Positions 5,800 to 62,367 of a stretch of DNA of 64,000 bases are shown one piece after another. The position numbers and the translations under genes are program-made. Origin of the DNA: Haliotis rufescens (taxonomy: Eukaryota); assembly GCF_023055435.1 (NCBI RefSeq), contig NW_025963817.1, forward strand, positions 1 to 64,000, in the 5' to 3' direction. Position 1 is the stretch's first letter; every line of letters begins with the position of its first letter. Under the pieces are notes generated by a model. That model was not told the origin of the DNA, did not search any database, and saw nothing but the letters and a program-made list of their open reading frames with translations.

Positions 5800-6484
5800 C
5801 GTAGGAGAGTCTGTAATAAAAAGGAATCTGGTGAAGACGATTTTGAAGTGAGTGAGTTGTGTTTTAAGCCTGTATTAGCATAATTCAAGCAATATCACAG
5901 CAAGGCTCGGGACTTAATGTACACGGGACAGATAATCCGTACCTGTATGCAGCTCGTAGGTCATCATTCGTGACCAACTCTTGTTTTTCCGGGACTATCC
6001 GAATAGCGAGTCGGGCCCCTCTGATAGCCATTTTTGCGAACGTCACACTTTTATCTGTGTGATAAATCATACCATCACCTGTGTGATAAGTCACACCATT
6101 CATGATATATCATTTTTAATTTCTTTGGACTCGCTTTTTTTACATGACATATACATGTAAGAGAAGGTATACACCCAAGACATTAACATGAAAAAACAAT
6201 TGACAATCACGTATTCAAGCGAAATTAGAATCGAATTATGTCCGGTTGATTGTCACGAGGTCCTCTTCGCTTGCTTAACAAGAAGATAACGGGTATACTG
6301 TATCTTCTGTAAAGACGACTTTAATCGTATCGCAGACTTTGACGTCGCCTAGTGGTTATAGCATTTGCTCGTCAAGTATAAGGCCCGGCTTCTATTTCCA
6401 AAATGGGTACGGTGTGTGAAACGATTTCTGGTGTCCCCCATAGTGATATTGTTTGAATATAGCTAAATGCTTCGTAATACCCAA

Positions 6485-34800: not shown

Positions 34801-37800
34801 CTGGGATATTATAACACATTATATAGCAAATATGACTTGAATATCCTATAAAATCCCGGGGATATTGTATTAAATCCCAGGGACATTACAACGTCCCTGT
34901 TTATGAGATTTAACCCGACTGGAGAACAATAGGATGACGTCACTGGAGTTTTATAAAAACACATTATGTTTATTTCCTACCTCTGACTCCTTACCGGTAT
35001 GTTTATTTCTTACCTCTGACTCCTGTTGTAAGGTATAGACTTGTGTTTTCGCAGGACGTCCCTGATTGTGTGATGTTCGAGTCCAGTGTGATCATCGAGT
35101 ACTTGGACACTGTGTGCCCAGGCAGCAGGCTGTACCCAGTTGACCCCTGGGAAAGGGCACAGGTCAAGATGTGGATGGATTGGGAGCTTGGTCTTGTTGA
35201 TGTAAGATTTGTTGTTTGTTTGTTTTTTATATGACGGCGTTCTGTAAATAATCGAGTCTGGACCAGACATTCCAGTGATTGACATCATGAGCATCGATCA
35301 AAGCAATTGGGATGCGATGACATGCATCAACCAAGTCAGCCAGCCTGACCACCAGATCCCGTTAGTCGCGTCTTAGGACAAGCATAGCCCCCCATTATGG
35401 CAAGCATGGGTTGATGAAGACCCATTCTACCCCGGATCTTCACGGGTCTGTCGATGTAAGAAACCTAATAAGGTGTGAGTGTTAAACACAAAATGATGCT
35501 CTCAAGCTGATGCTTTGTAGCCATGTTTGTCTACAGAATCTGCCACACATTTCAACCCCCTCTGTACATGTATTGGGAACATTTGACAACATAGTAAGCA
35601 GGTACGTACACATGCGTCATGTAGAGCTTGAAAGTAGTTCCTGTCAGGTGACCGACCTTCTTGCCTATTCTTTTTATCTTGATACCACGTTTTTCAGATT
35701 GGTATGTTGCATAAACAATATTATTACTTGCCATTATATGATAAATAATTTGTTTGTTTGTTGTTTAATGCCACACTCAGCAATATTACAGCTATATGAC
35801 GTCGGTCTGGACCAGACAATCCAGTGATTGACATCATGAGCATCAATCTATGTAATTGGGATTCGATGACATGCTTCAACCAATCCCATTAATCGCCTCT
35901 TACGAACGTTGTCACCTATTATCACAAGAATGGGTTGCTGATGACCTATTCTCTACCCGGATCTTCAGGGTTCGTGATAAATGAAACTAATTTGGGTTAT
36001 AATGTCCAAGACCTGGCTGTATCAAACTTCATTGATGCATCAACATGTCATTGAACCTCATTAACTAATGTATCATTAAATCAAGTTGTACTAACATTTT
36101 AATGACGTCGTTAACTTAATTAAGGTCCTGGGGTATCATTAGCATGTCATTAAAAACAAACAGGGCTGCGAACATATTCTTTGAATGCTTAGGACACACA
36201 AGGAAAGACTGTGTTTTCAGAAAACAAACTCAGCACCTCAAAACCTATCTTCCTGGGGCAAGGACTGTGAAAGTCCAGTTTCCACCCTGCCGAACTAGCT
36301 TGGAATATCTGGGTTCGGTTGTAGCGCCACTAGTGGTTATTACGAATTATGTCCCTTCTATGTCCCTAAGACGATCTGATCGATAATCAAGGTCTATGTT
36401 GTAATAAAACTGATCTGACTTCGCGAAGTGCATCAAATCACGTGAGCACCTTGATTAAAGATATGAAAAGATTTGGAAAATATCTGTTGACGCTAAATCC
36501 TGCAATCGACTGAAATCTACATGGCAGTTTACGAACAGGATGTTGATTTTGATACACACTTTTCATTGGACTATGCATAGCCTCATTAGTCCAGCCCAAA
36601 TATAACTCCAGCCTAGTTCGGCAAGGGTAGAAACTGGACTGGTCAGTTAACCCCCTTGCCTCGGGAAGATGCTCAAATCCATGAGCGATGAAGAAGTTAG
36701 TGCATGTTTCTGCTGTAGGAAGGCCATGTATTTAATGTATCATAAGGGTTTACTGTAGCTGTTAGTTAATGAAGCTTTGATACAGCCAGGTCCAAGTCTT
36801 TATACGTGAACCCTGTCTACTATGATGATGATGATGATGATGATGTGTTCTGCTGCAGGACCATGTACCTCTGGTGTATCAGAATACCCTCCCATTCATC
36901 CTGAGACTCAAACACCCATCAAAGGAGGCATACCTCAAGACTGTCCATCCTAACATGCCCAAGGCAAAAAGGGACATTTTTTGTAGGTACGTGAATGAAG
37001 GGAAGAGGACCAGCTTGAGTCTATATTCCACCAGGTGTACATATAATGGGGACAGCGTTAAGACCATAAAAGATATGTAGATAATATTAAGAAATCATGA
37101 CAGAAAAAAACATTTGAGAACAAATTAGCTTGATTGTTTGATGACAAATCCGCATTTATTGAAAAATCCCCCTGAAAACTTGGCACCCCCTTAACAGAAA
37201 CATGATAAATGTCAGTTATGCCCATCAATAGCGTGTGTGGCTTCCGTTAGCTGCTATACAGGCCACACATTAATGTCTCCTTGAGTTGCTAGTCTTTGGA
37301 AGAATGCCGTTCCATTCCCGAACCAAAAAGGCTTTCAGTTCCTGAAGTGTATGTGGCTGCCTTGCAGCCTGAAGACGTCTCCCAATCTCGTACAAGACAT
37401 GCTCCATTGGCGCCATGTCCGGTGACAAAGACGGCCAGGGTATCACAGGAATGTTATTCACCCTGAGGAAGTGCATGGAGACCTGTGCTGTATGGGGACA
37501 AGCGTTGTCCTGCTGAAAGACCTAGAGTTGAGGTTGACCCAGGAAGCGGTCTGACATGAATACGAAGAACATCATCCATGTACACGACAGTAGCCACACG
37601 CTAACGGAACACGTGTAGATCGCTCCTGTGATGATAACTGAAGCCTCCCCACACCACGATGCTTCCTCCTTCCCACCGGTTGGCCTGTAAGACACAGCAG
37701 TACCCTCATTAAGTAGTTTGCATGCACACTCTGATATGGCTATCGGAGTGAGAAAGACAACTTGCTGCCGCTGCTGAATGTCGCCAACACAGGTGCTGTT

Positions 37801-40800
37801 GGGCCACTGCAGACATTGTTGGCGTCGTTTAGTATGGGCCCAACATAGCACAACGATATCTGATTCCAGCCCCTCTTAGACGAAGACGAACTGTGTCGGC
37901 TTACATGTGGACCTTGAATGGTTGCACCTGTCTGTATTGCTCGTCACTGTCAGTCACACACGTAATAGTCCTGCACTGGAGTACTGACCCTCGGCGGCAC
38001 AGTACAAGGCTGGTGTTGGACACTGGCTTTCTGTGGATGCCTTGTGACCAATCTGGGGATGGTAGACACATGACACCCAAAGTGCCTCGCCACTGCAGTT
38101 GATGTTAATCCTGCCTGTAGCATCCAGACAGCAACGCCTCTTTGGAGTTCAGTTAATGGAACCTTGTTTCCTGAACCTTTTCAAAGTCAAGTGTGAAATG
38201 TTGGTGTTTTGTTTTTTTATATGGTGAAAAGGGGGAAAATGCACACATTTCTGCATGTGCTTTGTGCTGCATGAAATGACTGCGTTCCGGAGACATGCTC
38301 AAAGTGAATGATGTAAATAGTGAACAGTGTTTCTTCAATGCATCTCTTTATGTTTGGAGAGAGAGAGGGGGGGAGGGAGGGAGGGAGTTTTTCCTTTGGC
38401 GAGGTCTGGTTCTGGTTTTACAATAAGGGCTAGCATCTTTATATCCAAACACACAGTCTTTTTTTCTTTTAGCAGAGGATTCTCACTAGTACTTTGAGGG
38501 AAATCTGAAGCAAGACTAATAATGTAAATTACTTGCATGCATATATGATCCAGTATCTGGCACCTGGTAAGGCCCTGTTGTCCTGCCTGTTTCAGAGTGT
38601 ATGATGGGACCCACCGAACCCAGGAGGAGCTGGAGAAACATGCCCTCGCGTGCTACCAGAACCTGGTCGTCCTGGAGACGGGGCTGCAAGACAGACAGTA
38701 CCTGGTCAGAATCTCTCTCTCCATTTTACATAGTGGTTTCTCATTCAGTGCTGAGTAGAAGTATAATGTGCTTTGAGTAGTATCTTGCTTACTAGTTTTG
38801 TTTGGAATTAAGATTCTTAGTTTTGTCTGACATTTCTAAAGCAGGACAAATTCTTCTTTCGTTGGTCTTTAGTCTTGTCAATCTCATTCAAATCAGATCT
38901 TTGTTCTCGATACCGCTAAGCAGATCAGAGGAAATCCTATTACAGCTCATGTCACAATGACCTTTCAGGGACTTTGACCAACCAATTAAATGACCAACAA
39001 GAAGTGGACATTATCCAATCAGAAAGCAGCTTTTTGAGCTTTACAGCACTAGTTTCAAACTTCCCTGGGCAACGCTTTGAAAAATATTTGGACAAAGTTC
39101 TCAATTTAGAAGTGGACGACTGAACAAAATAACATTCTGTAATGTCTAATAGATGGCCAAGATTGTAAGGTAGTTCTCCTAGGGGCTGTTCCGTTTCAAA
39201 TGTTTATCCAACGGAAGCGAGATGCAGGGAACTATTTTGACAGAATCAGTCATACGGCTCACAACTGTTGTTTGAAATACCCCGTGTTAACCCTTTTGAG
39301 GTTGCCTGATTAGGAAATACATTCCAAATATCACATTCCTAATCAGGTAAGCGAGGCTCTGATTGGTCGGCTGAAAGGTCGTTGTGACTTGACCTGTAAT
39401 GGGATGTCTTCAGATCCTTGTTTAGCGGTAGCAAAAACTAAGATGAAACTAATAACTAAATTATTACACTTGTGTCGTACTGATTTTATTAAACTCGTGT
39501 AAGAGTTCTAGTATATCCCTCTGGAAATAGAAGAATTCTGACACTGATTTCGTAAAATCAGTATGACACATACTCGTATGATTTCTACAATCAGAGCTCC
39601 AGATAAGCTTTTGGTGTTGTGGGTATTTAACCCATGCATTTTAAAATCATTGGGTATCAGTAATTACCCACTAGTTTTTACACATGTGGGTATTTAAGTT
39701 AAATTTTTAAAAACACTATTCATCTAGTCCCTGCAAACTGGTGTTGTGTAGGTTCGAGAGCTTTATAGGACTCAAAAATAGCACGATACTTCCACAAGAA
39801 AGTGTGATGGCAAATGATCATGATGTAACTGTCATTGTGAAGTTTGGCAAGGTTGACGGAATGCCCGTTTATATTTTCAAAATAAGTTTCTGATTTGCTA
39901 ATCGAATACGCAGGATTTTATTTTACTGCGTATTTCTGCATTTCTGATGCGTATTTTACGCAGATACGCATCTTATCTGGAGCTCTGTACATACATATGT
40001 CCAGATTGATCAGTGTCAGCTCGATATGTTTAGGTTGGAGACAGATTCACAGTGGCCGATTTGACAGTTTTGCCCCGAGTTCGGATGTTCTTTGTCAGTG
40101 GGCTACCATTCACAGACAAGCACTTCCCCAATATTGTCCGATATTTAAAAAACTTGGAGGGTAGACTGTCCTTCAAGGCAAGTGAGAAAACCATGGTACG
40201 CTTTTCAAACACCATCATGACCAAAGCCCCATGGCTGCTCGTCGGACTGAGTAACTTCAAGTGTGGCACAAAACACAAGCGCTTTGATGGAAGTCCACAC
40301 ATAGACAGGTATGGATGTTGAAAGTTCTGAATCATAGTTAATAAGTTTCCTTTTTTATACAAAATTATTATCACTTTGTCATCTCACCTGACTGAAAAGA
40401 CAAGGGGGCTTCTGTCATGGACTGTTTGTCAGTCATTGCATCATTAGCAAGAGGTTAGAATCCAAAGTTCAATATGGCCGCCATGGAAGTCAATTCTGTT
40501 GGACAGTATCTGTACTTGTCAAGCTGTCACCGCAGTGGTTGTAGCCTCACAATAACTGGGGGATATTATCCCCTGCTACGAAGTGGAAGGGGATATAGTA
40601 ATTGGTGCTGTCCATCCTTCCTTCAGTCTGTCAAAAACCATGAGAGATATCTTAACCAAACTTGGCACATAGATAGGTCTAATGGTGATCTGGTGCCTTT
40701 TGATAGTTTTGGATTTTTGAAAATTTATTTTTTCGACTTTCCATGGCAACGACTTTGACTAAGACTGAAAATTGTGGTAGTGCTCCTTTCTTGAGCAGAT

Positions 40801-43800
40801 CTTGAAAAATGTACAAATTTCTTGCCTTGAACACAACCGGACATGTCATATTGGCGGGGGATATGAATATTTCATGCTTGGTTAGACCTGCCATAAGGTC
40901 GATATTTGGCCACAAAAATACAACAAATGTCATTAAAAAATTCCTACATTTGTATTGAAAAATTTCAATTTTTTGTTATAATAATTATGATAGTTGCAAC
41001 TATTGTTATGGCTTTGCAGAAGTGGCATGTGTTTCATTGATAACTGGACCAAGAGAGAGGAGAAGGATTTTCATCATGCATTGAATTCATTGCTAAAATG
41101 AATTGTTGCAGTGACTCTGAATTTAAGAAAATATGACTTTAGAAAAATCCAAATTATGAACAAAACATTGATTTATTCAGAATTTGCCTGCAACAGGCAC
41201 TTTGTTTGTAGGCCTATACGAACCCCCTACAATAGTGTGTTTACCTATCTCAATACCATTGCAATCGTTGTTGTTTGGTCTCAGGGCTATAGGAGAGACA
41301 GAGGCAAGCACCAAGTCCCTGATCGAGGCAAGCACCAAGTCCCTGATCCAGGCAAGCACCAAGTCCCTGGTCCAGGCCAAGCTACCCTACGTCCACAAAG
41401 ATGACATCACCGTCTACAACTACCCCACCTCCACCGAGGTGTGGCAGGTGAAAATACTCCTCAGTGAAAAGGTAAAATGTCCACTCTTCTTGTGTACATG
41501 TTCCTGTTCTCCAAGTATCAGCACATGTATCAGGTCATGATACGATTCATACGATACACATATTTCATTCAATCACGGGGAAATGTCTTGGCTATAAAGA
41601 TTTCAGTGCTCCTTTCCAGAGCAGATCTTGAAAACTGTATAATATTTCTTCACCAAACTTGGCACATACATAGGTCTATTGGTAAACTGGTGCCTTTTAA
41701 TAGTTTGTCATTTCGGAGAATTTCTTTTTGAGTTTCCATAGCAACAACTGTGACTTAGACTGAAAATGGCGGTAGTGCTTGTTTCTGGAGCAGATCTTGA
41801 AAAACGTAATATATTTCTTGCTTTGCACACAACCAGACATGTCATATTGGTGGGGGATGTGAGTATTTCATGCTTGTTAAAAAAAATTTATTTGAGGTTT
41901 GGGGACATTTGCACAGATCACCTGTCATTCTGATCCATTGTTGGTCATGAATATTGATTGATGGGTCCTCACTATGATTCCTATTGTTTCCATGGAAGGG
42001 TGTGTCCTACAAGAGTGTTGACTGTCCCTTCATCGATCTGATTGGCCGAGCAGCTGGGTCAGGATCAGTGATGAGGATACAACATGGCGGCCGTATGGTG
42101 ACAGGTCCCAGGACCGTCCTGGAGTATCTGGACAAGGCTTTTAGTGGCAAAAGTAGGTATCTCAGTTTGTTGTGAAAGTACACTTGGAGTAAGTAAGGTT
42201 TTTCCTAAACTGAAAGATTTAACAGATATATTACTAAGTTATGGTAATTTGAAATTTAATAAAAAAAATTGTTAATTTTAATATATTTGTTTCATTTGGC
42301 ATTCGTCATGAGTTGATGTGATAAGCGGCCAAAGAAATGAAGCATTATATATCTATTTTGTTCAATCAGAGGTTAGTTCCCTTCATAAGGGTTTTGTAGT
42401 GGTCAGAGACTATATGAAATGTATATAATTATTTTCTGTTAGATGTTTGTAGATGCATCTTTTCATCAAATCTCATTAAAATCCAATCTTTGTTCACGCT
42501 ATCGCTGAACAAAGATCTGAGGACATCCCATTATGGGTCCCGTCAGAACGACCTTTAATGCGACAAATCAGAGCATTGCTTACCAGATTGGGAAAATGAC
42601 AGTCAGAATGTGTTTTCTAATCATGCAAGCTCAAAAAGGGTTAACACAGGGTATTCCGAACAAAAGTTATGGGCTGTAAGACTGATTCCATCATCGATTC
42701 GTCATCATATGATTCGTCATCTATCGTACGCTTTGATAGGATAAAGGTTTGAAACATAAGAGACTTGCCATAGACTATGGGAGTAATGCCACACAATCTT
42801 GGCCATCTGTTAGATATTCAAGAATGATCTTTAGTTCAGTTTTAAAATTTTGAATCACTAAGTTTTCAATATTTGGTATACTTTCTAATGTGTAAGTCGT
42901 GGCTAACGACTTTCACTTGGTTGACATACAATGAGGATTTGCAGATTTTATTGTTTTCAGTAGCTAGTCGTATATTGAATCTTGAATGACCGCCATTTTG
43001 CTTTCTGTGACGATCGATATCAAATTTTTTTATGGTCAATAAATAAGTACAGATGAAAATAGTATTCAAATAACTATTGCTATCAACGATATTTTAGTAT
43101 TTGTGATTATATTATCTGTCTTGTTTTTAAATAATCTTTAGTTTAAAAAAATCTTTTCCCGTGAGGTCACGTGATAACCAAATATGGGATAATAGTCTCG
43201 ATCCAAATGTTACAACGCGTACACTTGAGCAGACTCATGAATATAACTCATAAATATTAATTAGACCGTTCGTTACGTTAACAGATCGTTATTATAACAG
43301 AAACAAACGTATGTTTTCCATGTATATCTAAAATGATATTTTTTTTTATTAATTGTCCGGTGAATTAAACAATTTAAATTGAAACAATTCATAATTCATC
43401 ATATTATGAATACGTAACAACTTGTAATGTGTGTGAAAAGTCGTACTAAAATACGCTTTTTGAAGGGGGCGTGGCCTAAATGCAAATGTCCGATTGGGAT
43501 TTTAAATTTTCCGGACCCCTGCTTTCTATAGTGTTGGTGGATGGGGGTGTAGCAATATTGTAAGATGCAATCTTTTCTTCTTCCTTACCACGTTGTTATG
43601 GTTACAGAACTGTTGCCGGACAATCCAGAACAGAGGTCACAAGTGCAGTGTTGGCAGGCTTGGGAACAAACCATGTACTTCAATGAGTTAGCTCCCCTTG
43701 TTGAAATGTGCATTGTCTCTAAGGTTATGGTACTCAGGTAATTTATCTATGAAACGTACTGGAAATAATTTATTGTCTATATTTGAGGGCGGTGTGGTAG

Positions 43801-45091
43801 CCTAGTGGTTAAAGCGTTTTCTCGTCACGCCGAAGACCCGGGTTCGATTCCCCAAATGGGTACAATGTGTAAAGCCCATTTTCTGGTGTCCCCCTCCGTG
43901 ATATTGCTGAAATATTGCTCAAAGTCAGCGTAAAACCACTCACTCACTCACTCACTCACTCACTCACTTGCTCACTCACTCACTCACTCACTCACTCACT
44001 CACTCTATTTGAAATATTAATCTTTTTACCCAAAATTGTAAACAAATTTACTCAAACCCTTTTGTGATGGGAGTCAAAGTGTGGAGGAGTAAGTTTTCTG
44101 TCGCTGTGAACGGTATTTCAGGGGATGTCAACTTGATGTAGAATAACCATTAAATGATGGTGGTCATAGAGGTCTTTTAACTTTTGGTGGATGTTAGTTG
44201 TCCAAATATCAAGAATAATAATCAGGGTGAATTTCAGATTTGAAATCACAATCACAGGATCTTTAATGCCAAAGGGAAGCAACTCTGCACAGCGAAGTCA
44301 AAGTTAAAGGATTAGTTTGATAACACAGGGAACTTTAGGGACGGGAGGAGCATCATTCAAAGACAAATAACTTGTTCTAGATGACACAATCCGATTATAT
44401 CTTGTTTTTTTTGTGAACATATTTTACACATTTATGTTTTATGAATGACAATTAGACTTATAGTAACCTATGATAAGTTCACTTAAAGCAAAGTTAGGAA
44501 TTATGCTAAAAAATGGATGCATATTATCAGTTTTCATTGCGAACAATTGATGTTATTCTATGTGAACTGGAAACACTGCAAGCTGTTGTAGCGAGCTTAG
44601 GATGTAAGGAATAATGTCTAACATTTAAGATGCAAGAATGCTACTATCTTTGTGATGACTAAGCCTCAAAATATATGCAAGTTATGGTGCGATACGACAG
44701 GTACGAGGAGCACCTGGACGAGCTGCTGTCACTGAGAGGTAACCCCACGTACCACGCCAAGTTCAACAGCATCCTCAGGTGTTTCATGATGGGGTAAGTC
44801 CTGCCCCAGCATCACAAGTACATGGGTCGCACTCTGTCAGTCACAGTGGGACTTCAGTATCATCTTGAAATCTCCATCAAAGTCTGCTGACCATCTCCGT
44901 GGTCTAGTGTGTCTTGCCTGGAGAGTTTGGCATAGAACAGGCACACACAGACACAGAGACAGGCATACACTCACACACACATGCACACATACACACACAT
45001 ACACACATATATATATACACGCACACACAGACATACACACACAGAGACACAAAGGCGCGCACACACACATAGAGACACATACACAGGCATG

Positions 45092-45122
<31 letters not shown>

Positions 45123-47470
45123 TCACGTACACACAGACATACATACACACAGAGACACATACACAGGCATGCACGCACACATACAGACACACACACAGAC
45201 ACTCACGTACACACAGAGACACATACACAGGCACGCGCACACATACAGACACACACAGAGAAACATACACAGGGGGCGGTCGGGTAGCCTAGTAGTTAAA
45301 GCGTTCGCTCGTCATGCCGAAGACCCGGGTTCGAATCCCGACATGGGTACAATGTGTGAAGCCCATTTCTGGTGTCCCCCGCCGTGATATTGCTGGAATA
45401 TTGCTAAAAGCGGCGTAAAACCAAACTCACTCACTCACTCACTCACATACACAGGCATAGAAACACAGACACATACAGACACAGACAGAGACACTCATGC
45501 ACACACAGACACATACACAGGCACGCACACACACACACATACAGACACACACAAACAGAGACACTCACGCACACACAAACATACACACACAGAGACACAT
45601 ACACTTGCACACACACNNNNNNNNNNNNNNNNNNNNNNNNNNNNNNNNNNNNNNNNNNNNNNNNNNNNNNNNNNNNNNNNNNNNNNNNNNNNNNNNNNNN
45701 NNNNNNNNNNNNNNNNNNNNNNNNNNNNNNNNNNNNNNNNNNNNNNNNNNATATCATTTATAACAGGCTTGTGATTTGTTTAAACAACATATCAGGCAGC
45801 GATTTTTCATACAGATGAGGTCACGATTGTGAAAGTAGATCCAGGGCGAACTCAGATTGGTTGTTTCATGCTCACGACTGAGAGAAATTTGTGTGCTAAG
45901 ATTGAGCTGCTGAAACTGGTGGCAAACTGGGCCAGGATTTTTATCAGAATAGAATGGAGATATAATAAAATGGATCATCAAGGATAGCTGAATTTTACTA
46001 ATTTCCATTTGTTTGATAACGAGGGCATTTATAAATTAGGTAATAAAATTACAAATGTTACCTTAAAGCTTTTGATTTTCCTGCCCAATTTGTTTTGTTT
46101 TTCTTCTACTGAACAATGCCAGACCCATACATTTTTGTGTTTTACAGACAAAACTACCTAAATTTAGGTAAAGTAAACAACAATACTTGGAAATAGAAAT
46201 AAAAACCCAAAATATACTTTTTTGTAAATGTTGAAAATATTCTTGTTTTCATTTTTGCTACAACTCATTTAGGAAATTTGTGGGAAATTTGCCTCAACAT
46301 TTTTTAGATTACGAGAGGACAGTCCCTGTTGGCCCCAGCTGACGAGAGACTATGGACATTTGATGGACACTAATATGGACAGGAGGAAGAAGAAGGAACT
46401 AACATTTGAGTTACTTCACATCCGTCTCCAGCATCTCGAGGCATCGCTACAGGTGGGTGGCAGGGAGTGTCACATGTGTTTATTGTGTGGTACGTTTTCT
46501 GGTTTGGTTTGGTTTGGTTTGGTTTGTTGTTTAACCCCGCACTCAGCAATACTCCAGCTATATGTGGCAATCTGTGAATAATCGAGTCTGGACCAGACAA
46601 TCAAGATATTGATATCATGAGCATCGATCCGATCATCGGTCCCAATTGCTTGGATTGATGCTCATGATGTCAATCACTGGATTGTCTGGTCCAGACTCGA
46701 TTATTTACAGACCGTTGTCATATAGCTGGAATATTGCTAAGTGCGGTGTTAAACAACAAACAAACAAACAAACCTGTGTGTGGGGTCACATTTCAAATTT
46801 TTCATTCATTTCAATGAGGTAAGGAGGTCATATTTTAAATTACCGTATTCGACGTAATAAGCGCCCCACTCAAATAAGTGCCCACGGCGACATTTGCTGA
46901 TATACTGGCTAGTGAACAATCCCAATTAGCAGCCCTTCCAATTGATCAATATACACAAGACTTATTTATTCATGTTTATTACCCACCAGTGTGTTATATG
47001 CACCCTTAATTATGGGCAATTAAATTCTGGAAAATATATCTGTCGCGTGTAATACACAGAGACTTTTCTCTTGTATCATTACAAGCTGTCAGCATAAACC
47101 ACGAAATTTACAATCTTTCAACTCTGGGTTTTTTTCACCAAAATTGTATTCTAATAAGAGCCCCCTATTTCTAATTTTGAGAGTGCCCTGGGCGCTTATT
47201 ACGTCGAATACAGTATGTTTATTTGGCAGGTTTAATGATCTACCACTGGTGACCTATAGTAATGTATTCCAGGACAAGACCTACCTGGTTGGAGAGAACC
47301 TGTCTCTGGCAGACATCTGCGTGTTCTCTCGCCTGGCCCTGTTTGCCCACGTGGGGATGAAGATCTCGGCAGACAGGTACCCCTCTGTTGCCACCTGGCT
47401 GGTCCGGCTGCAGACCAGGCAGCCATTCTCTGACTGTATCGACTTCCTCAACAAAATCTTCCATATATAG
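31819..47470 (+). CDS. Tandem two-module glutathione S-transferase-like protein, 612 aa, 13 coding exons
   Basis: Exons 31819-31883, 33044-33152, 33691-33789, 35055-35201, 36859-36986, 38596-38704, 40034-40308, 41285-41471, 41999-42152, 43608-43737, 44701-44793, 46308-46452, 47273-47470. All introns are GT-AG and phase-consistent (1839 nt). Module 1: [49 protein letters not shown]. Module 2: [43 protein letters not shown]. Confidence 0.9.
32683..33020. mobile_element. MITE (aggct...ggttctcaggca termini); inverted copy at 47845-48184
   Basis: The two copies are reverse complements over about 330 bp, with imperfect TIRs. Confidence 0.75.
33265..33528 (-). mobile_element. SINE family A (GST intron 2)
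   Basis: Matches the family-A consensus over its full length. Confidence 0.88.
35208..35448 (-). mobile_element. SINE family A (GST intron 4) with a 13-bp TSD overlapping the splice donor
   Basis: TSD tgt(t/c)gatgtaaga at 35195-35207 and 35449-35461. Confidence 0.88.
36246..36671. mobile_element. MITE family E (GST intron 4)
   Basis: TIRs present; TSD ctcaaa(a/t)cc. Confidence 0.82.
37090..38260 (-). mobile_element. Decayed Tc1 (DD34E) transposon in intron 5 of the GST gene
   Basis: Minus-strand remnant [42 protein letters not shown] has 34 residues between D and E. The frame is broken upstream. Boundaries are approximate. Confidence 0.85.
39592..39987. mobile_element. hAT-like MITE with 16-bp perfect TIR CAGAGCTCCAGATAAG
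   Basis: TIRs at 39592-39607 and 39972-39987; TSD not preserved. Confidence 0.7.
40565..40900. mobile_element. Helentron/HINE-like repeat (related units at 41560-41878 and possibly 1-150)
   Basis: Terminal stem tatcccct...ggggata followed by aaacttggcaca units; 1-30 carries gaccttgacc...caaggtca. Family assignment is inference. Confidence 0.55.
43786..44005 (+). mobile_element. tRNA-derived SINE, family B (GST intron 10)
   Basis: A and B boxes, long (ACTC)n tail, short TSD tatttga. Confidence 0.88.
44940..45616. repeat. (CA)n-rich compound microsatellite interrupted by a SINE
   Basis: acacacag/acatacac repeats running into the gap at 45617. Confidence 0.9.
45272..45445 (+). mobile_element. 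tRNA-derived SINE, family B, inserted in the CA-rich repeat
   Basis: Near-identical to the other family-B copies. Confidence 0.88.
46500..46772. mobile_element. Two inverted partial family-A SINEs (fold-back)
   Basis: 3' halves in opposite orientation with the tails pointing outward. Confidence 0.85.
46843..47213. mobile_element. Tc1/mariner-type (TA TSD) MITE, CCGTATT termini; inverted copy at 49693-50035
   Basis: TA-ccgtattcgacgtaataagcgccc...gggcgcttattacgtcgaatacag-TA. Confidence 0.85.
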
Positions 47471-51770: not shown

Positions 51771-53898
51771 TTATCCACGTACTGGCGTCTTGGTGACCAT
51801 ACCATCTTCATCGACCCGTATCCTCACTCTATCCTTGTCGGCCTCCGAGGTGACGATGTAATCCACTGGCACTAGGTATACCTGTCAACGAAATAGGTTT
51901 GCTTGCAGTTTTACGCCACACTCGGCAACACTCCAACTACATGACGGCGGCCTGTATGTAAATATTCGAGTCTGTACCCGGCAATCCTGTGATTGACATC
52001 AAGAGCATCGATTTACGCAGTTGGGATACGATGACATGCATCAACAAGTCAGCGAGCCTGACCACCCGATCCCGTTAGTCGCCTCTTACGACAAGCATAG
52101 TCGCCTGCTACGGCAAGCATGGGTTGCTGCATGAAGACCTATTCCTCCCCGGATCTTAAAGGACTGATCTGTTTCACCCGTGAATGTAGAATACATGGAT
52201 ATCGAAAGATGGATTTAAGTTCGATCATCTTTGACGGAAAAGGCATCTGGTACTCAGTGATGTGAATGTTTAGTGTTTAAGCATCAGCAACAACTATTAT
52301 ATTTCCTGCAAGCATTTCGCTTGACAATGACAGTACGGGCGTTAACGACCATTCCAGTGTGGCGACAACTTGTCCATGTCTTGCAATGATTTTGTCTCAG
52401 ATAGTGCTTTATTTATGGGGAACTCTCTCCTGTACCACAAAGGTACTATTATATTCACTGACAATATGTGTTACACTCTATAAGGATAGCGTAATTTGAA
52501 AAAAAGTTACCACCTTCGAGTAGTTATGTTGGTATCTCTCTAACTAGAAAATAAACAGTGACAAATGGAGGCCTGGACTTCTAGAACGTACCCTCACGAT
52601 ATGACTTCATGAAGGGAGTAATGACACAAGGTGTTCGCGACGCGGGAGGGCATGACCTTCCCTACCGGTAACATGCGACTCTAGAGCAGGTAAGCATATT
52701 TAAAATGACAAATACCTCCAGATTTGGATTTTCTTGTAATATGACAGCTTTGGCATGTTCTCCATCCTGAAAAACATAATTTTCCCAGTTTATCATAGCA
52801 TACGCGATAGCCATCTTAATGTCCAGTTTATAGTCAGTTAACGCCCTTGTCTCGAGAAGATGGCGATAGGAGGGTTTAAGACAAACTACAGTTGGTTGGT
52901 TGGTTGGTTTGTTGTTTAACGCCGCACTCAGCAATATTCCAGCTATATGTCGGCGGTCTGTAAAATAATCGAGTCTGGACCAGACAATCCAGTGATTGAC
53001 ATCATGAGCATCGATCCACGCAATTGGGATCGATGACATGCATCAACTAAGTCAGCGAGCCTGACCACCCGATCCCGTTAGTCGCCTTTTACGACAAACA
53101 TAGTAACCTTTTACGGCAAGCATGGGTTGCGCGTAATATCACCAAAAACAAGAAATTACAGTCATTCAAGTTACTACATATAAACTGCCTGGACTGAGAA
53201 TGAAACAAATAGGAAATGGTTATTCGGTAGTGATGTATTTGACACGGGTATCACTCAGTATTTTCTGCCATCTTCCCGAGGCAAGGAAGTTAACTGGCTC
53301 TAAAAGTCCAGTCTCCGCTGACAGTTAACTTGCCTCGGAAAGATGGTTTTCAGCCTATCAAAACGATAACGTTTGTAATTGTTTTGGTCAAATCCAATTT
53401 TCAAGTGTATGCTTGTTTTTTTTCCAGGCAAATTAGTTTAACTTTGTTATGAAAGCCGTTCTTAGAAAGCAGACAGTTGATACCAANNNNNNNNNNNNNN
53501 NNNNNNNNNNNNNNNNNNNNNNNNNNNNNNNNNNNNNNNNNNNNNNNNNNNNNNNNNNNNNNNNNNNNNNNNNNNNNNNNNNNNNNNNNNNNNNNNNNNN
53601 NNNNNNNNNNNNNNNNNNNNNGAGGCAGAACAGACAAACAACGTGTTGATATCATGAACAACTTCAACGCCGACGTATCACAGAAGTCACGGAGCTTGAC
53701 TTCCATATTTGAATATAACCGTACGACAGTCGTGTCCCTTACAACGCGTAGTAATACGGGACCATGGGAACTACTCTCTCCCCGGTCCCACGGGGAACGA
53801 CACATAGACGTGATGACACTGCTACATCTTACCTCTAAAAGTAGTTCCGGCCATGCCTGTTTCGTCCACGTTTCCGGCGTCTTTTGGTTCTGCGCCAT
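51771..53898 (-). CDS. Potato inhibitor I family (eglin c/CI-2, I13) serine protease inhibitor, copy A, 75 aa
   Basis: Exons 53898-53833, 52766-52716 and 51881-51771 (phase 0, GT-AG) give MAQNQKTPETWTKQAWPELLLE-DGEHAKAVILQENPNLE-VYLVPVDYIVTSEADKDRVRIRVDEDGMVTKTPVRG*. Hallmark motifs WPEL, AxxxIxxENP, VT-P1, RVR and PxxG-stop are present. Confidence 0.92.
51895..52160 (-). mobile_element. SINE family A (intron 2 of inhibitor A; another at 52890-53130 in intron 1)
   Basis: Matches the family-A consensus. Confidence 0.85.
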
Positions 53899-54022
53899 GA
53901 CAGCTGACCACAGCACCTACTCACAAACAACCTAACTATACATTACTCACCATCGAAAACATATCAACAACGCCGAACTGTGTTTAAGAATGACTATCTT
54001 TTCACGTTTTAAACCGCACCCG

Positions 54023-54030
54023 CTTTTATA
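54023..54030 (-). promoter_or_regulatory. Putative TATA box of inhibitor copy A
   Basis: TATAAAAG on the minus strand, about 125 bp upstream of the ATG at 53898. Confidence 0.45.
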
Positions 54031-55057
54031 TTTTGGACACACTCGGACAAAAGATTCTAAAGCATGTGCAACTTATAGTTAAGAATATGCCCCGCCACGA
54101 TAAACAGTTGTACCTTTAATAGGGTAGTGTGGGGCGCCTAACAGAGGCACTATGCTCTACTATATATAATGCACCGTTATGTCGTTCATTGAGATTCACT
54201 GATGCACCCGTAATTCACATATTGTTAGATTCTAGTAGGGTTATTGCAGTTCATATTCTGTAAGATTACTGCTCACTGCATACCAGCAATAACTACCGCT
54301 GTGTTGTTACTGCTCAAATGTAGGTGTCTGTTGCAAATGCATAAATATGTTACATTTGTATGCATGCGTGTGTGTATGTACATGTTATACACAAAGTGAA
54401 AGTCACAAAGTGAAAGCCACAAAGTGAAAGTCACAAAGTCGCTTGAATGTGACATGTGACCCATCCATTTGTCGTAAAAATGAGTCTTCAACGAAATATG
54501 ACAAGGATCCTTGTGAACCGCTGGAAATATCAAATTTGAATGTGAAAATTGGCATTATTGTTTGTTTGTTGTTTAACGCCGCATTCAGTAATATTCCAGC
54601 TATATGACGGCGGTCTGTAAATAATCAAGTCTGGACCAGACAATCCAGTGATTGACATCATGAGCATCGATTTACGCAATTGGGATACGGCGACATGCAT
54701 CAACCAAATCAGCGAGCCTGACCGGTTACCACCGAACCCGTTAGTCGCAGAGCTGCGTCCCTTGGACACGGCAGAAACCGGAAATAAATATTCTCTTGGG
54801 TTCGAATCCCGGTTCGAAGTGATTGTGTTTCTAGGTTTTGTCGGCACTATACCTGTGCTCGTGGGTTTCACTAAAGTTTCAAAAATCTGAGACCTGCATC
54901 AGTTCTGTCTTTCCTCCCACACTAAGCTGACACGCCGTGACACAACTTGAACACTATTGAGAGCGGCGTTAAACCAAACTCACTCACACCTATTGACCTG
55001 AAAGGATCCCTGTCGTACCTCGTCCTTTATTGAATTTGGTTTCAGGTCAATATTTCC

Positions 55058-55576
55058 CATCTTCCCGAGGCAAGAGAATTAACTGACTATAAAAGTCCAG
55101 TTTCCGCCCTTGCCGAACTAGGCTGGTATTATGGAGTTACATTTTGGCTGGACTAACGAGTCTATGCATAGTCCAATCAAATTCGCGCACCGAAATCGAA
55201 ATCCGGTTCGTAAACTGTCGTGCAGATTTCGGTCGATTGCAGGATTTGCAAAACATGTGCACCGCCAACTCGTTGTCAACAGATATTTTCCAAATCTTTT
55301 CGTGTTTTTAATAAAGGTGTTCACGTGATTTGATGCATTTCACGATGTAAGATCCGTTTTATCACAATATAGATCTTGATTATCGATCAGATCGTTTTGA
55401 CTGGGCGCCACCATTTTGTGTGAAGCAAACGCAAGTGATACGAGAGGTGGAATCTGATTGGTCCATAGGAGAGGCCACTGGTGGCGCTACGATCGAGCCC
55501 AGTAATTCCAGCCTAGTTCGGCAAGGGTGGAAACTGGACTTTTATAGTCAGTTAACTCTCTTGCCTCGGAAAGATG
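55058..55576. mobile_element. MITE family E, ~70-bp TIRs (CATCTTCCCGAGGCAAG...)
   Basis: Clear terminal inverted repeats with TSD atatttcc on both sides. Other copies at 2455-2850, 36246-36671, 53269-53345, 56220-56788 and 58880-58995. Confidence 0.9.
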
Positions 55577-56219
55577 ATATTTCCTAGACTCATATTAGGT
55601 AATACAAATATGAGCAAAACTATTATTCTCTTTGTTGTTTAACGCCGCTCTCAACAATATTTTAGTTATATGACGGCGCATAACTTCTTTCAGTGGCATT
55701 TAGAAGTTGGTGTGATGAAGTAAGACGAGTTCTATGGCTGAACAACTTTTTTATTACAATTAGTGCGACGTTTCGGTGTAGATCCTAACACCTTTATCAA
55801 GCAAGTGACGTTCGTTTGAAGTGACTATTTTTATAGAGTAATAACTTTTGATTGCGAAGCTGTTCTACAACTTATGAAACATATTGTATATGATAGCTGG
55901 AGCGTGCACAAAGAAGGTAAATGAAGGTAAAAGTAGTTGTTTACGCGTTCAAATTATATTATCTTTATAGAATTTAAAGTAGCTACATCACGACGCGTCC
56001 GGTTGACGTGGGAGGGGCGTGGTGCAGGTCGTAGTCTTTAAAAGTTGCCCCACTCCACCCACCCCAGCCCCACCCCCTTCTCGAGCACGGGCATGCTGAA
56101 GATCAAGAATTATAACCAGGACGAATCTGGGATTGGAAACCACTATGACGTGAGTCTTGCACGCCTAAGGAACACAACCTGCACAGCGGATTGGACCTCT
56201 GGGCTCTCGACTGTCTTGT

Positions 56220-56788
56220 TATCTTCCCCAGGCAAGGGAGTTAACTGACTTTAAAAGTCCAGTTCCCACCCGGAATTCCTGGGCTCGATCGTAGCGCCAC
56301 CAGTGGCTATTACGAGTTATGTCCCTTCTATGCCTCTCCTATGGACCAATCAGATTCCACCTCTCGTAACACTTGCATTTGCTTCAAACAAAACGGTGGC
56401 GCCCAGTCAAGACGATCTGATCGATAATCAAGATCTATATTGTGATAAAACGGGTCTTACATCGCCAAGTGCATCAAATCACGTGAGCACCTTGATTAAA
56501 AACATGAAAAGATTTAGAAAATATCTGTTGACAACGAACTAGCGGTGCACATGCTTTGCAAATCCTGCAGTCGACCGAAATCTGCATGACACTTTACGAA
56601 CCGGATTTCGATTTCGGTGCGCGATTTTGATTGGACTATACATAGACTCGTTAGTCCAGCCAAAATGTAACTCCATAATACCAACCTAGTTCGGCAAGGG
56701 TGGAAACTGGACTTTTACAGTCAGTTAACTCACTTGCCTTGGAAACAGGACTTTTACAGCCAGTTAACTCACTTGTCTCGGGAAGATG
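56220..56788. mobile_element. MITE family E, opposite orientation to 55058-55576
   Basis: TIRs present; 9-bp TSD ctgtct(t/g)gt. Confidence 0.88.
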
Positions 56789-57352
56789 CTGTCTGGTCCA
56801 CTTGACCCTCGACTGACGAGCGATCCCAATCAGATCCCATAAAGAGATCATAGCAATAAGATGATCGTACCTCCAATACTTTTGCATGGATTGACGACAA
56901 TGGTTGTGCTGCGATCACATTGTGAACGAGGCACAGGGTCCAATGATCAGCGGAGTAGATCTCAGATGAATGTGGCACCGTTAACGCACAGCCAAGGTCG
57001 TGACGTTTTATTATTTATTTTTTGCATTTATACAGGATCATACGATAGGAAACATGATGAAGTGAAAAGCCCTTGTTCTATTTCGTGACGTTACGACAGA
57101 TCCTAATGCTAACTCTTGACACCACATGATTATACAAAGCCAGACTGCAAGATATAAACAACAACAACTCCCGTCTTCTTACAAATACACTCAGGTAACG
57201 CACAAATACAAACTTGAGCTTAAATCGTTTCTCACATAAGCCAATGAGACAATGATGTCTTCTAATCATCGGACGACGTTGTTACGTTGTGTTTCTGCCA
57301 GTCACGGCATAAGGTAGGGCGTTCACACTATGATGATGTCAGTACAGGTGCT

Positions 57353-60127
57353 TTAGCCAATCCTGGGGATGCTTGCGACTGTCCCATCTACCTGAACGAA
57401 GATCCTAACTCTACTCCGACAGAAGTTCTCCGTGACAAATGAGTCCGCCGGTAGTACAAATACCTGACAACACAATAAAACTATAATATCAAGACACACC
57501 CCAGCAATCCCATTTTTGGCTAATAACCATAGACGTCAACATTTTATAGAGTATCCTCAAAAAGGAAAAAAAGACACTATTTTTTAAAACTTTTTTCAAC
57601 CTTAAACAAATTTACCGGCCTAGTAGTTTCATACCCAAAAAACACAAATTACAGGATTAACTTTTTGATTTCTTGCATAAAATAGATTCATATTGTTCAC
57701 ATTTATCCAGAGTTCTATTTCCATAATAAATATACAATGGTTGACATTCCTTGCATTATGACGTCATTTAGGCGTCTGTAAATAAGTCGAGTCTCGACCA
57801 GACAATTAAGTGATTGATATCATGAGCATCGATCTACGTAACTGGGACAAGATGACATGCATCTACCAAGTCAGAGAGTCTGACCACCCGATCCCGTAAG
57901 TCGCCTCTTACGACAAGCATAGTCGCCTATTACGGCAAGCATGGGTTGCTGAAGGCCTATTCTACCCGGATCTTCAGGGGTTGGTGTCCATGTAATACAT
58001 TGTGACCACCCAGTGTTAGTGAACTCTCACACGACATAAAGATGTGTCCATCAGTTTCAGATATGCAGTCTGAGATGAAGCTACATATGTACTTATAGCG
58101 AGTTCTAAAAGGTAAATATTTGCAGGTTGAAAGTGATTTGATGTGTGACACCAGACAAACAGACTTCACACATTTCATTCTTATAGGGAATCAAACACCC
58201 GGGCCCTCATCCTAACTAGCAAACAGCTTTACCATTAACTACCCCGCCACCCCGCTAAAGTAAGGGGGTGAGGTAAGGTAAAATGGGTCTTAACGTTACT
58301 TCCAAGATTATTGCACTTGTACATGCACGCTTGTACTAGTCCGGACTGATGCCGATTTATAGTGCTAGCCCACTGAGATACCATGCCGCAGTTTAACAGA
58401 GTTCAGACAGAGTTGACTCTGAGCCGACCAGTTCTTGTTTTAATCCTTTAACTGCCGAGCGCCAGGCAGGGTAACAACAAGAACTATATTTTAACGCATT
58501 TTGGCATGACTCGGCCGGGGATCGAACCCCAGACCTTCCGCTCTCCGGGCGGACGCTCTACCCCTAGGCAACGTAGGCGGTCCATCTAAAGTAAGACATT
58601 CGTGACAAATGTATATCTGAAGAATAGATGATGTCATTGCATTTTAGGAATGGGGTGAGTTCAGTTTGCAAACCACACAAGAATACGTGTACCTCTAGGT
58701 CGGGGTTGTCTTGTCGTATGGCATCCCTTGCATCAACGCCAAGCTAAAAAAACAAATAGATTACCTTAGAATATCCACAGACTAACATTGTTCATTAAAC
58801 ACAGCGAATGAAGCCAAGAAGAAAACCCAAGGTTCGGAGGATACAGACAATCCGTGACTCCGTGTAGCTCGTTGGTTATCATCTTCCCGAGGCAAGGGAG
58901 TTAACTGACTATGAAAATCCAGTTTCCACCCTTGCCGGGATTTTCTGGGCTCGATCGTAGCGCCACCAGTGGCTATTACGAATTATGTCCCTTCTTTGTC
59001 CCTCCTATTGACCACTATTCCACCTACGAGCGTATAGTCACGCGGGACGCGTTCGTTTGTGCATCTAACCAATCTAAAATATCTCTTGAACATGAGTCAT
59101 TCTTCAAAAAAGATTATAGTAACCAACATGTATGGTATTCGCGTTTCTTTTGTCCGTGAGTATATAACCAACATTAAAAATAAACAATAAACACTCCACA
59201 AATCGTAAACAGGTTTTATCTTTCAGGTTTCATTTCAAAAGGTATGCATCTATGTACTTCCTTCGCTTAAAGTGGGCGCTGTGGTTCACGGTCACTAGTT
59301 CTTTTCCAGCCAAGGCCAGGGCGTTGTTTTTTTAATCCACTGCGTGAAACCGAGTGAGTGAGTTGGGTTTTAACGCCACTTTTAACACAATTCCAGTCAT
59401 ATCGCTGCGTGTCAGCTTAATGTGGGAGGAAAGCCCGAAGTAATGCAGGTCTCAGACGTTCACTAATTCGGTGAAACCCACAAGCACGGGTATGGTGCTG
59501 ACAAACCTAGAAACATAATCGGGGCGAACCGGGATTCGAACCCACAACCATAGGTTTCGCGTGAAACTGAGAGATAATATCCATGACTTATGGAATCAGT
59601 AACTGATGATTGACGTTCATCCCAAAGCGCGAGGTAACAAAACGGTGTTTAAGCTACCTGGGTTCAATTGGTCCCAGCGTTAATAGTGTCCTTTTAAGAT
59701 GTTCAGATGTGATCCTTTGTTACAGGACTCAATTATCCTGATGTGCTGTAGTTTTGCATCAGAGGGTAACTGGCTTCAACGTGAAAACAAACTGACAGAC
59801 GGTATGGCCCCTTGCATGCACACGAGACGCCATATTCTCAATTATTTCAGATGTTATTTTAATGTCAGCTATACATTATTCGCGTGACAATACTGTGCCC
59901 TGACCTCGATACTTACATTTCCCGCTGGACTTGTATAAAGGCCATTGTAGCATGTAGCTAACTGCCAGTCAGCTATAGTACATGTATATGCTGGAGATTA
60001 ATATCACATAAAAGCATGTGAACTCTCCCAAAGAAGGTATCCTTATGATGCTTCCTCTCACCTTATGAAGAAGCTCTGGCCATTCATCCTTGGTTGGTGC
60101 TGCTGCAGGTTCGCGGTGTTCATCCAT
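57353..60127 (-). CDS. Potato inhibitor I family (I13) serine protease inhibitor, copy B, 75 aa
   Basis: Exons 60127-60062, 58743-58693 and 57463-57353 (same 66/51/111-nt sizes as copy A) give MDEHREPAAAPTKDEWPELLHK-LGVDARDAIRQDNPDLE-VFVLPADSFVTENFCRSRVRIFVQVDGTVASIPRIG*. Minus-strand AATAAA near 57007-57018. Confidence 0.92.
58265..58585 (-). mobile_element. SINE family C, second copy (intron 2 of inhibitor B)
   Basis: Homologous to 30766-31118; TSD ctaaagtaag. Confidence 0.85.
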
Positions 60128-60749: not shown

Positions 60750-62367
60750 GGAAGGGACATGGGTAAAGGGAAGGAACATTGGTAAAGGGAACAGACATCT
60801 GTAAAGGGAATGGACATATGTAAAGGGAACAGACATCTGTAAAGGGAATGGACATCTGTAAAGGGTATGGACATCTGTAAAGGGAACGGACATCTGTAAA
60901 GGGAACAGATATCTGTAAAGGGAACAGACATCTGTAAAGGGAACAGACATCTGTAAAGGGAACAGACATCTGTAAAGGGAATGGACATCTGTAAAGGGAA
61001 CAGACATCTGTAAAGGGAATGGACATCTGTAAAGGGAACAGACATCTGTAAAGGGAACAGACATCTGTAAAGGGAAGGGACATCTGTAAAGGGAACAGAC
61101 ATCTGTAAAGGGAACGGACATATGTAAAGGGAAGGAACATTGGTAAAGGGAACAGACATCTGTAAAGGGAACGGACATCTGTAAATGGAACAGACATCTG
61201 TAAAGGGAAGGGACATCTATAAAGGGAACAGACATCTGTAAAGGGAATGGACATCTGTTAAGGGAAGGGACATCTGTAAAGGGAAGGGACATCTGTAAAG
61301 GGAACAGACATCTGTAAAGGGAACGGACATCTGTTAAGGGAAGGGACATCTATAAAGGGAATGGACATCTGTTAAGGGAACGGACATCTGTAAAGGGAAG
61401 GGACATCTGTAAAGGGAAGGGACATCTGTAAAGGGAATGGACATCTGTTAAGGGAACGGACATCTGTAAAGGGAAGGGACATCTGTAAAGGGAAGGGACA
61501 TCTGTTAAGGGAACAGAATCTGTAAAGGGAATGGACATCTGTTAAGGGAACAGACATCTGTAAAGGGAACAGACATCTGTAAAGGGAATGGACATCTGTT
61601 AAGGTAACAGACATCTGTAAAGGGAAGGGACATCTGTAAAGGGAACAGACATCTGTAAAGGGAACGGACATCTGTAAAGGGAACAGACATCTGTAAAGGG
61701 AACAGACATCTGTAAAGGGAGCGGACATCTGTTAAGGGAACAGACATCTGTAAAGGGAACGGACATCTGTAAAGGGAACGGACATCTGTAAAGGGAACAG
61801 ATATCTGTAAAGGGAACAGATATCTGTAAAGGGAACAGACATCTGTAAAGGGAACGGACATCTGTAAAGGGAACAGACATCTGTAAAGGAAACGGACATC
61901 TGTAAAGGGAACGGACATCTGTAAAGGGAACGGACATCTGTAAAGGGAACAGATATCTGTAAAGGGAACAGACATCTGTAAAGGGAATGGACATCTGTAA
62001 AGGGAACGGACATCTGTAAAGGGAACGGACATCTGTAAAGGGAACAGACATCTGTAAAGGGAGCGGACATCTGTAAATGGAACAGACATCTGTAAAGGGA
62101 GCGGACATCTGTAAATGGAACAGACATCTGTAAAGGGAAGGGACCTATGTAAAGGGAACAGACATCTGTAAAGGGAAGGGACATCTGTAAAGGGAACGGA
62201 CATCTGTAAAGGTAACAGACATCTGTAAAGGGAACGGACATCTGTAAAGGGAACGGACATCTGTAAAGAGAACGGATATCTGTAAAGGGAACAGATATCT
62301 GTAAAGGGAACAGATATCTGTAAAGGAAACAGACATCTGTAAAGGGAGCGGACATCTGTAAAGGGCA
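60750..62367. repeat. 19-bp tandem repeat (GTAAAGGGAACAGACATCT), about 85 copies
   Basis: Direct 19-bp periodicity; the NN positions in GGGAANNGAC vary. Confidence 0.97.

Follow-up and report, generated by a model that had tools for sequence, protein, structure and literature searches.

The 64,000-nucleotide stretch of Haliotis rufescens DNA analysed here (“the window”; start of contig NW_025963817.1) contains two neighbouring minus-strand genes of the eglin c/CI-2 (I13) inhibitor family, gene A at 51771-53898 and gene B at 57353-60127. As the earlier note had proposed, both follow the same 66/51/111-nt exon layout, with intron positions common to the two genes and all four introns of the GT-AG type in phase 0 (Table 1). 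The spliced products are 75 amino acids long each, contain no internal stops and are identical at 31 of 75 residues, corresponding to 127 of 228 nucleotides in the DNA. For the middle exons, 12 AG-GT candidates (six per gene) came up, and the chosen pair reproduces the RefSeq proteins. The search for a third copy in the window yielded none: a hidden Markov model (HMM) of 147 non-abalone domains, run against 3408 six-frame fragments, matched the exons of A and B alone at E < 1, and tblastn with four orthologues across the window had the same outcome.

Table 1. Exons and introns of the two I13 genes in the window.
Feature	Positions	Strand	Description	Evidence
Gene A exon 1	53833..53898	-	66 nt, codons 1-22, ATG up to domain start	tblastn with H. 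rubra and H. asinina orthologues, 82%
Gene A intron 1	52767..53832	-	1066 nt, GT-AG, phase 0; contains a 135-N assembly gap	
Gene A exon 2	52716..52766	-	51 nt, helix	HMM of non-abalone domains, E 5e-6
Gene A intron 2	51882..52715	-	834 nt, GT-AG, phase 0	
Gene A exon 3	51771..51881	-	111 nt including stop; reactive loop with P1 Ser51, P1' Glu52, Arg57, Arg59, terminal Gly75	
Gene B exon 1	60062..60127	-	66 nt	tblastn with H. asinina orthologue, 78%
Gene B intron 1	58744..60061	-	1318 nt, GT-AG, phase 0	
Gene B exon 2	58693..58743	-	51 nt, helix	
Gene B intron 2	57464..58692	-	1229 nt, GT-AG, phase 0	
Gene B exon 3	57353..57463	-	111 nt including stop; reactive loop with P1 Glu51, P1' Asn52, unpaired Cys54 at P3', Arg57, Arg59, terminal Gly75	

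Letter for letter, the spliced products equal the H. rufescens RefSeq proteins XP_046331315.1 (A) and XP_046331276.2 (B); thus, they are not chance assemblies, and genes that had been described as hidden are in fact already annotated. Annotated orthologues of both exist in H. cracherodii, H. rubra and H. asinina, so that full-length, open copies are present in four species, with identities of 88-96% to the A and 69-93% to the B of the window; within each species, the records of A and B give an identical length for the longest contig, and in H. rubra and in H. asinina, the accessions of A and B are consecutive. RefSeq calls the Haliotis proteins “trypsin/subtilisin inhibitor-like” and “subtilisin-chymotrypsin inhibitor-2B-like”, which are automatic names only. 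In the literature searched—mostly open-access, with the supplementary tables of transcriptome papers, which possibly list both genes, lying outside the search—no text describing what these proteins do or what their reactive sites are, no relevant paper on abalone or mollusc I13 genes or on a link of abalone I13 genes to infection, and no evidence of immune expression of A or B was found.

The family assignment is firm. Over positions 1-64 of the 64-position Pfam model PF00280, the whole proteins score 69.0 (A) and 71.3 (B) bits against a cut-off of 24.5 bits, which bears out the assignment made by the earlier note, and exon 3 alone clears the cut-off with 33.3 and 36.6 bits, respectively. PF00280 was the sole profile match up to E 0.001, with no hit to Inhibitor I78 (PF11720); consistently, the H. 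asinina B orthologue superposes at TM 0.66 with the I78 cluster and at TM 0.90 with I13. The AlphaFold models have a mean pLDDT of 81.7 (A) and 84.3 (B); superposed on CI-2, they reach TM 0.93 (by target) with an rmsd of 1.0 over 63 columns. The predicted fold of both A and B is that of CI-2, in which a single helix lies on a mixed sheet and the binding loop is extended. Invariant in all eight abalone proteins are the core Trp16, Thr at P2, Arg at P6' and P8', and the C-terminal Gly; Arg57, Arg59 and Gly75, the loop-supporting and terminal residues that had been reported as kept, are indeed found in A and B.

A signal peptide, previously said to be missing from both proteins, is likewise lacking according to a hydropathy proxy: the best 9-residue window within the first 30 residues reaches 0.02 (A) and 0.71 (B), while two homologues with hydrophobic leaders score 3.08 and 3.18. 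A leader contributed by an upstream exon is absent in seven of the eight RefSeq models. The exception, the H. asinina A model, carries 10 extra N-terminal residues that are too short for a leader and weakly hydrophobic (1.52); in the window, the frame of this extension is closed by a stop 7 codons ahead of the gene A ATG.

Among known inhibitors, barley CI-2 (I13, PF00280) is the closest in kind, with a gap-free 63-residue domain of 41-44% identity, P2 Thr, the two supporting Args, a terminal Gly and no disulfide. It differs in having Met at P1, where A has Ser and B has Glu; moreover, the equivalents of its Tyr61, Arg62 and Phe69 are absent from A, and that of Glu60 is absent from B in three of the four species. 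The Gly that follows the first short helix in 146 of 160 family domains is replaced by Leu in A and by His or Arg in B. Leech eglin c, a small animal member of the family, has the same fold (TM 0.86-0.87 by target); however, it shares only 22-31% identity, hence “CI-2-like” is a better description than “eglin-like”. A passage of PMC7191736 characterizes eglins as I13 inhibitors that contain no cysteine and act on elastase and cathepsin G, whereas B contains one Cys.

The gap-free alignment to CI-2 places Ser51 of A and Glu51 of B at P1, in agreement with the earlier reading. This position is variable across the family (heterozygosity 0.62), yet all four A orthologues have Ser and all four B orthologues have Glu. 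It would be very improbable that the register of B is slipped by one, with Glu51 acting as the Arg-binding P1' acid, Thr50 as the true P1, and B not being Glu-directed at all. Such a slip would fit an invariant Glu51 in a paralogue without an acid at position 52, a situation with no parallel among the other P1-Glu domains (0/147). However, apart from the absence of gaps, the secondary-structure strings of both models are identical, and the H. cracherodii B orthologue combines Glu51 with Asp52, its P1'-P3' residues Asp, Phe and Arg being those of the family consensus; together with the alignment, this loop fixes the register of B, with Glu at P1.

Glu at P1 is rare within the family but already known. 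It occurs in 5 of 160 other family domains, all five with Asp at P1'; P1-Glu members are found in wheat and Urochloa as well as in tomato. The reference list of PMC11855745 includes an ethylene-regulated proteinase inhibitor I from tomato, an I13 protein with Glu at the reactive site as in B, although of plant rather than abalone origin (Margossian et al. 1988, PMID 2903499). Given this report and the existing annotation of both genes, the novelty of the pair had been overstated.

At P1', an acid (Asp or Glu) is present in 156 of 158 aligned family domains and in A of all four species (Glu), whereas B retains it, as Asp, in H. cracherodii only; the B residue is Asn in the window and Ala in both H. 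rubra and H. asinina. According to a passage of PMC2134966, the CI-2 loop owes its stiffness to the Args, acting via Thr58 and Glu60. The missing acid lowers the case for B as a tight inhibitor, not its family membership, since 2 of the 158 members are also without it. In B, all five positions P1'-P5' vary among the four species, a point missed by the earlier note, without any change in P2 Thr, P1 Glu or either Arg, and a Cys without a partner stands at P3' in three of the four species. Of 63 columns overall, 18 are variable in B and 7 in A (Fisher p 0.024), 13 of the 18 lying outside P1'-P5'; still, the concentration of variation at P1'-P5' exceeds family-weighted chance (p 0.0005, or 0.06 when any 5-residue window is allowed). 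Together, the missing acid and this variability would be compatible with diversifying selection as well as with an inhibitor that has become weaker. A is not free of oddities either: it lacks the P2' aromatic residue, the P3' Arg and the Phe69 equivalent together, a combination seen in none of 147 other domains, and its affinity may therefore be low as well. Taken as they stand, A and B are ordinary I13 family members, with one loop being mildly unusual.

The old duplication suggested by the earlier note is supported by the presence of both genes in four species, the low A-B identity, the common introns, and synonymous sites near saturation (pS 0.69-0.75). In trees of 63 columns, the A proteins of the four species group in one clade and the B proteins in another, with SH-aLRT values of 99 and 99 (155 rows, thorough search incomplete) and 99 and 96 (38 rows). 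The two clades do not join in the free, poorly resolved trees, but an enforced single clade is not rejected (p-AU 0.58); the A-B identity of 29/63 is no greater than that to 32 and 45 of 147 other domains. Among the 9 of 148 non-abalone representatives that were looked up, no mollusc relative outside Haliotis was identified, which prompted us to consider horizontal transfer from algae or protists as a possible origin.

On balance, we favour, by a modest degree of confidence, the reading that A and B are leaderless, paralogous I13 serine-protease inhibitors which arose by tandem duplication before the split of the four Haliotis species and have kept different P1 residues. The standard mechanism established for the I13 family is that of a substrate-like loop which is cleaved very slowly; accordingly shaped on a CI-2-like fold, the rigid loop of each abalone protein would enter the protease active site as a substrate would. 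We infer that both are inhibitory and differ in specificity. A, which is strongly conserved and has Ser at P1 and the P1' acid, would most likely target enzymes whose S1 pocket is small or tolerant, e.g., subtilisin-like or elastase-like proteases, and B, with its fast-changing primed side, would most likely prefer proteases accepting an acidic P1. The fixed P1 of each paralogue supports, at the level of sequence, a retained difference in specificity, and to this extent the claim that the duplicates diversified toward different proteases stands; the targets named for them, subtilisin/elastase-like enzymes versus glutamyl endopeptidases of pathogens, had been extrapolated from P1 alone. Subtilisins accept many P1 residues, and bitter gourd BGIA, which we take to be an I13 member, presumably has Ala and not Glu at P1. 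BGIA (P24076) appears in a table of PMC12096062 under the name “Glu S.griseus protease inhibitor”, i.e., as directed against a Glu-specific protease. Hence, P1 does not dictate the target, and caution is advisable in reading a target from it.

Since B is without the loop-bracing acid, it might instead be under relaxed constraint and inhibit weakly or temporarily, its primed side drifting in a loosened loop while A does the main job. We regard this as unlikely: the lack of the near-universal P1' acid in three of the four B orthologues, the greater number of variable columns, most of them outside P1'-P5', and the unpaired Cys speak for it; on the other hand, all four species have an intact gene in which Trp16, P2 Thr, P1 Glu, the two Args and Gly75 are invariant, the variation clusters at P1'-P5', and the CI-2 mutants E60A and E60S still crystallise with subtilisin, to judge from the titles of PDB 1y34 and 1y3b. 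Rather improbable is an arrangement in which the P1 difference matters little and both proteins are broad inhibitors of the subtilisin type whose targets largely overlap, or protect against leaked proteases of the animal itself, and were kept for dosage or different expression. The absence of a leader points to the cell interior, the nearest solved structures are those of CI-2, mostly with subtilisin and with P1 variants Gly, Ala, Lys, Phe, Tyr and Arg, and the literature searched held no paper linking abalone I13 genes to infection; however, P1 is fixed per paralogue in four species though adjoining positions change. Eglin and CI-2, too, are without a leader peptide. Nevertheless, they act on foreign or extracellular enzymes (for eglin targets, a passage of PMC7191736).

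Little credence is given to an arms race in which B, as an animal protein, inhibits Glu-specific proteases, with P1 Glu locked, every primed contact turning over under positive selection and the loop rigid without the P1' acid on which nearly all other members rely; the target of B would possibly be a Glu-cleaving protease that an intracellular microbe or virus brings into the cell, B being leaderless. The tomato P1-Glu inhibitor I mentioned above reportedly inhibits V8 protease. Hardly credible is that one or both genes are pseudogenes or chance exon assemblies: the RefSeq XP models are predictions and intron 1 of A contains an assembly gap, but the splice sites are canonical, no stops interrupt the frames, and the orthologues are open and full-length at the identities given.

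If the favoured reading of specificity-differing paralogues is true, two genes provide abalones with small protease inhibitors of distinct specificities, of relevance for mollusc immunity and inhibitor engineering, the proteins being easily made and assayed. Tandem paralogues with differing P1 residues are the usual pattern in canonical inhibitors; given this, the plant precedent for P1 Glu and the presence of both genes in RefSeq, the picture of the family is unchanged. On the same reading, the four natural B variants would probe the need for a P1' acid in a cleavage-resistant canonical loop. The loss of this acid in B had been overlooked by the earlier note.

The two small minus-strand genes A and B are confirmed as real. 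They belong to a textbook family and have already been annotated, and the contrast of Ser and Glu at P1 is fixed in four abalone species. They lie in tandem in the same orientation and encode 75 aa each; the 66/51/111-nt exon layout described in the earlier note is correct base for base, and all four introns are GT-AG and of phase 0. The assignment to the eglin c/CI-2 (I13) family, CI-2 being barley chymotrypsin inhibitor 2, is borne out by the PF00280 profile, with whole-protein scores of 69.0 (A) and 71.3 bits (B) against a cut-off of 24.5, which exon 3 of either gene exceeds on its own. The genes had been called hidden; both are, in fact, in RefSeq, where spliced gene A is identical to XP_046331315.1 and spliced gene B to XP_046331276.2 of Haliotis rufescens. 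These XP records are predictions, named trypsin/subtilisin inhibitor-like and subtilisin-chymotrypsin inhibitor-2B-like. With B exon 3 as query, the search returned one protein, from H. cracherodii, whose cluster includes XP_046331276.2, while the A match was reached via an H. rubra protein, one of the best 150 of 606 hits, whose cluster includes XP_046331315.1. Within the window, no third copy was found with an HMM built from 147 non-abalone domains or by tblastn with four orthologues. By blastn, the spans of A and B show no DNA similarity apart from interspersed repeats that they share. Literature searches gave nothing relevant on I13 inhibitors of abalone, oyster or molluscs; supplementary tables from expression work on abalone may list A or B.

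A 135-N assembly gap (53487-53621) lies in intron 1 of A and leaves the exons untouched. The RefSeq model of the H. asinina orthologue of A (XP_067663621.1) has 10 additional N-terminal residues, which match the window upstream of the A start codon (tblastn to 53913), where a stop closes the frame; the start of that model is probably over-extended.

Alignment of A and B to CI-2 needs no gaps, and their AlphaFold models (112-row alignments; pLDDT 81.7 for A and 84.3 for B) match it at TM 0.93 by target, with an rmsd of 1.0 over 63 columns; eglin c is a poorer match (identity 22-31%). All eight abalone proteins share Thr50 (P2), Arg57, Arg59, Trp16 and Gly75, so that the loop-supporting Args and C-terminal Gly are kept as had been claimed, and a hydropathy proxy likewise showed no hydrophobic leader in A or B, in agreement with the reported lack of a signal peptide. 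P1 (residue 51) is Ser in 4/4 A orthologues and Glu in 4/4 B orthologues, as proposed from the sequence. A B loop slipped by one residue is very unlikely, given that H. cracherodii B carries the family consensus Asp, Phe, Arg at P1'-P3', which places Glu51 at P1 in the canonical register.

Among 160 other domains—taken from 148 other representatives at the top of a P1-Glu-query search, and not an unbiased census—P1 is Met in 88, Ala in 20, Glu in five and Ser in three. The Glu carriers include two from wheat and Urochloa, and the reference list of PMC11855745 includes a 1988 title on a tomato inhibitor I whose reactive site has Glu; thus, P1 Ser and P1 Glu are rare in the family, yet already known.

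A and B are both present in H. rufescens, H. cracherodii, H. rubra and H. asinina. The tandem arrangement appears to have been kept in all four, given that the longest-contig value is equal for the A and B proteins within each species and that their accessions are consecutive in H. rubra and H. asinina. In trees, A and B each form a four-species clade, so the split is older than those species; with 31/75 identical residues and a pS of 0.69-0.75, near saturation, the age in the proposed old duplication stands. By sequence, A and B do not stand out as mutual closest relatives. Unconstrained trees do not join them, and their similarity is not greater than that of either to many unrelated domains; a single A+B clade was not rejected by the AU test (p 0.58), the constrained tree being better by 2.2 log units. 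Intron positions, length, adjacency and the loss of Gly at position 21 (present in 146/160 other domains), all common to A and B, argue for duplication.

Overlooked in the earlier note is the loss of the P1' acid in B, where P1' is Asn (H. rufescens), Asp (H. cracherodii) or Ala (H. rubra, H. asinina); Asp or Glu stands there in 156/158 aligned family domains, including all five other P1-Glu domains. In CI-2, according to PMC2134966, the loop is stiffened by Arg65 and Arg67 acting via Thr58 and Glu60, while binding has a hotspot at Tyr61. Three of the four B orthologues have an unpaired Cys at P3', and all five P1'-P5' positions of B are variable, within 18/63 variable domain columns versus 7/63 in A (Fisher p 0.024). 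When each column is weighted by how much it varies in the family (147 domains of no more than eight gaps; 13 gappier ones dropped), the chance of such clustering in B is 0.0005 for P1'-P5', a window picked post hoc, 0.007 for P4-P5' and 0.06 if any five-residue window is allowed, which is suggestive of a primed side changing faster than expected by chance. In A, three of the seven variable columns fall within P1'-P5' (0.007; 0.26 with scan correction); the P1' acid is kept, and the P2' aromatic, P3' Arg and Phe69 equivalent are all missing, a combination seen in none of 147 other domains.

By analogy with the family, we lean towards A and B acting as standard-mechanism inhibitors, unsecreted or cell-released, with differing preferences: A would favour small or tolerant S1 pockets, and B proteases accepting an acidic P1. 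The tomato P1-Glu inhibitor reportedly inhibits V8 protease. None of the results supports the proposed link to proteases of pathogens. A minor possibility is that constraint on B has relaxed and that it is drifting as a weakened inhibitor. Its lost P1' acid and quickly changing primed side amount to a modest oddity, described by amino-acid counts that do not separate positive selection from relaxation; judging by structure titles, solved subtilisin complexes exist for CI-2 with many P1 residues and with E60A and E60S, so neither a P1 change nor loss of the P1' acid need abolish binding. An overlap in specificity, or a guarding role against the animal's own enzymes, seems unlikely beside the fixed Ser/Glu contrast; subtilisins do tolerate varied P1 residues, and the bitter gourd inhibitor BGIA has Ala at P1. 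Pseudogenes are scarcely credible next to the canonical splice sites and the orthologues of both genes in four species.

Features of the window and their coordinates
Feature	Position	Strand	Remarks
Gene A exons	53898-53833 (66 nt), 52766-52716 (51 nt), 51881-51771 (111 nt)	minus	
Gene B exons	60127-60062 (66 nt), 58743-58693 (51 nt), 57463-57353 (111 nt)	minus	
Toll-like receptor, single 856-codon frame	3304-5874	minus	leucine-rich repeats and TIR domain
Cysteine-rich EGF-repeat exon, ~500 codons, three near-identical copies	16962-18479, 22227-23708, 26149-27666	minus	
Probable glutathione S-transferase-like gene, exons	33108-47470	plus	GST_C match at 47024-47467
~410-bp repeat, two copies, 93% identical	55062-55475, 56332-56745	opposite orientation	between A and B
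Interspersed repeat copies, 84-87% alike	51954-52157, 52956-53130, 57774-57974		both A introns and B intron 2
Minisatellite, ~19-bp period	60750-62365		some 600 bp upstream of B start

The Toll-like receptor gene and the EGF-repeat exons are 25-50 kb from A and B, a weak context. The EGF-repeat copies sit inside a larger repeated unit, the third having an in-frame stop at about 27112-27114, and the one copy scanned matched EGF_TEN weakly, under the cut-off. The glutathione S-transferase-like pieces at 33108 and 40076 seem related by eye, with no Pfam match. The ~410-bp repeat, short pieces of which also lie near 53269 and 58880, looks like a non-autonomous DNA transposon, and the intronic repeat copies in A and B are probably independent insertions because the duplication is old.
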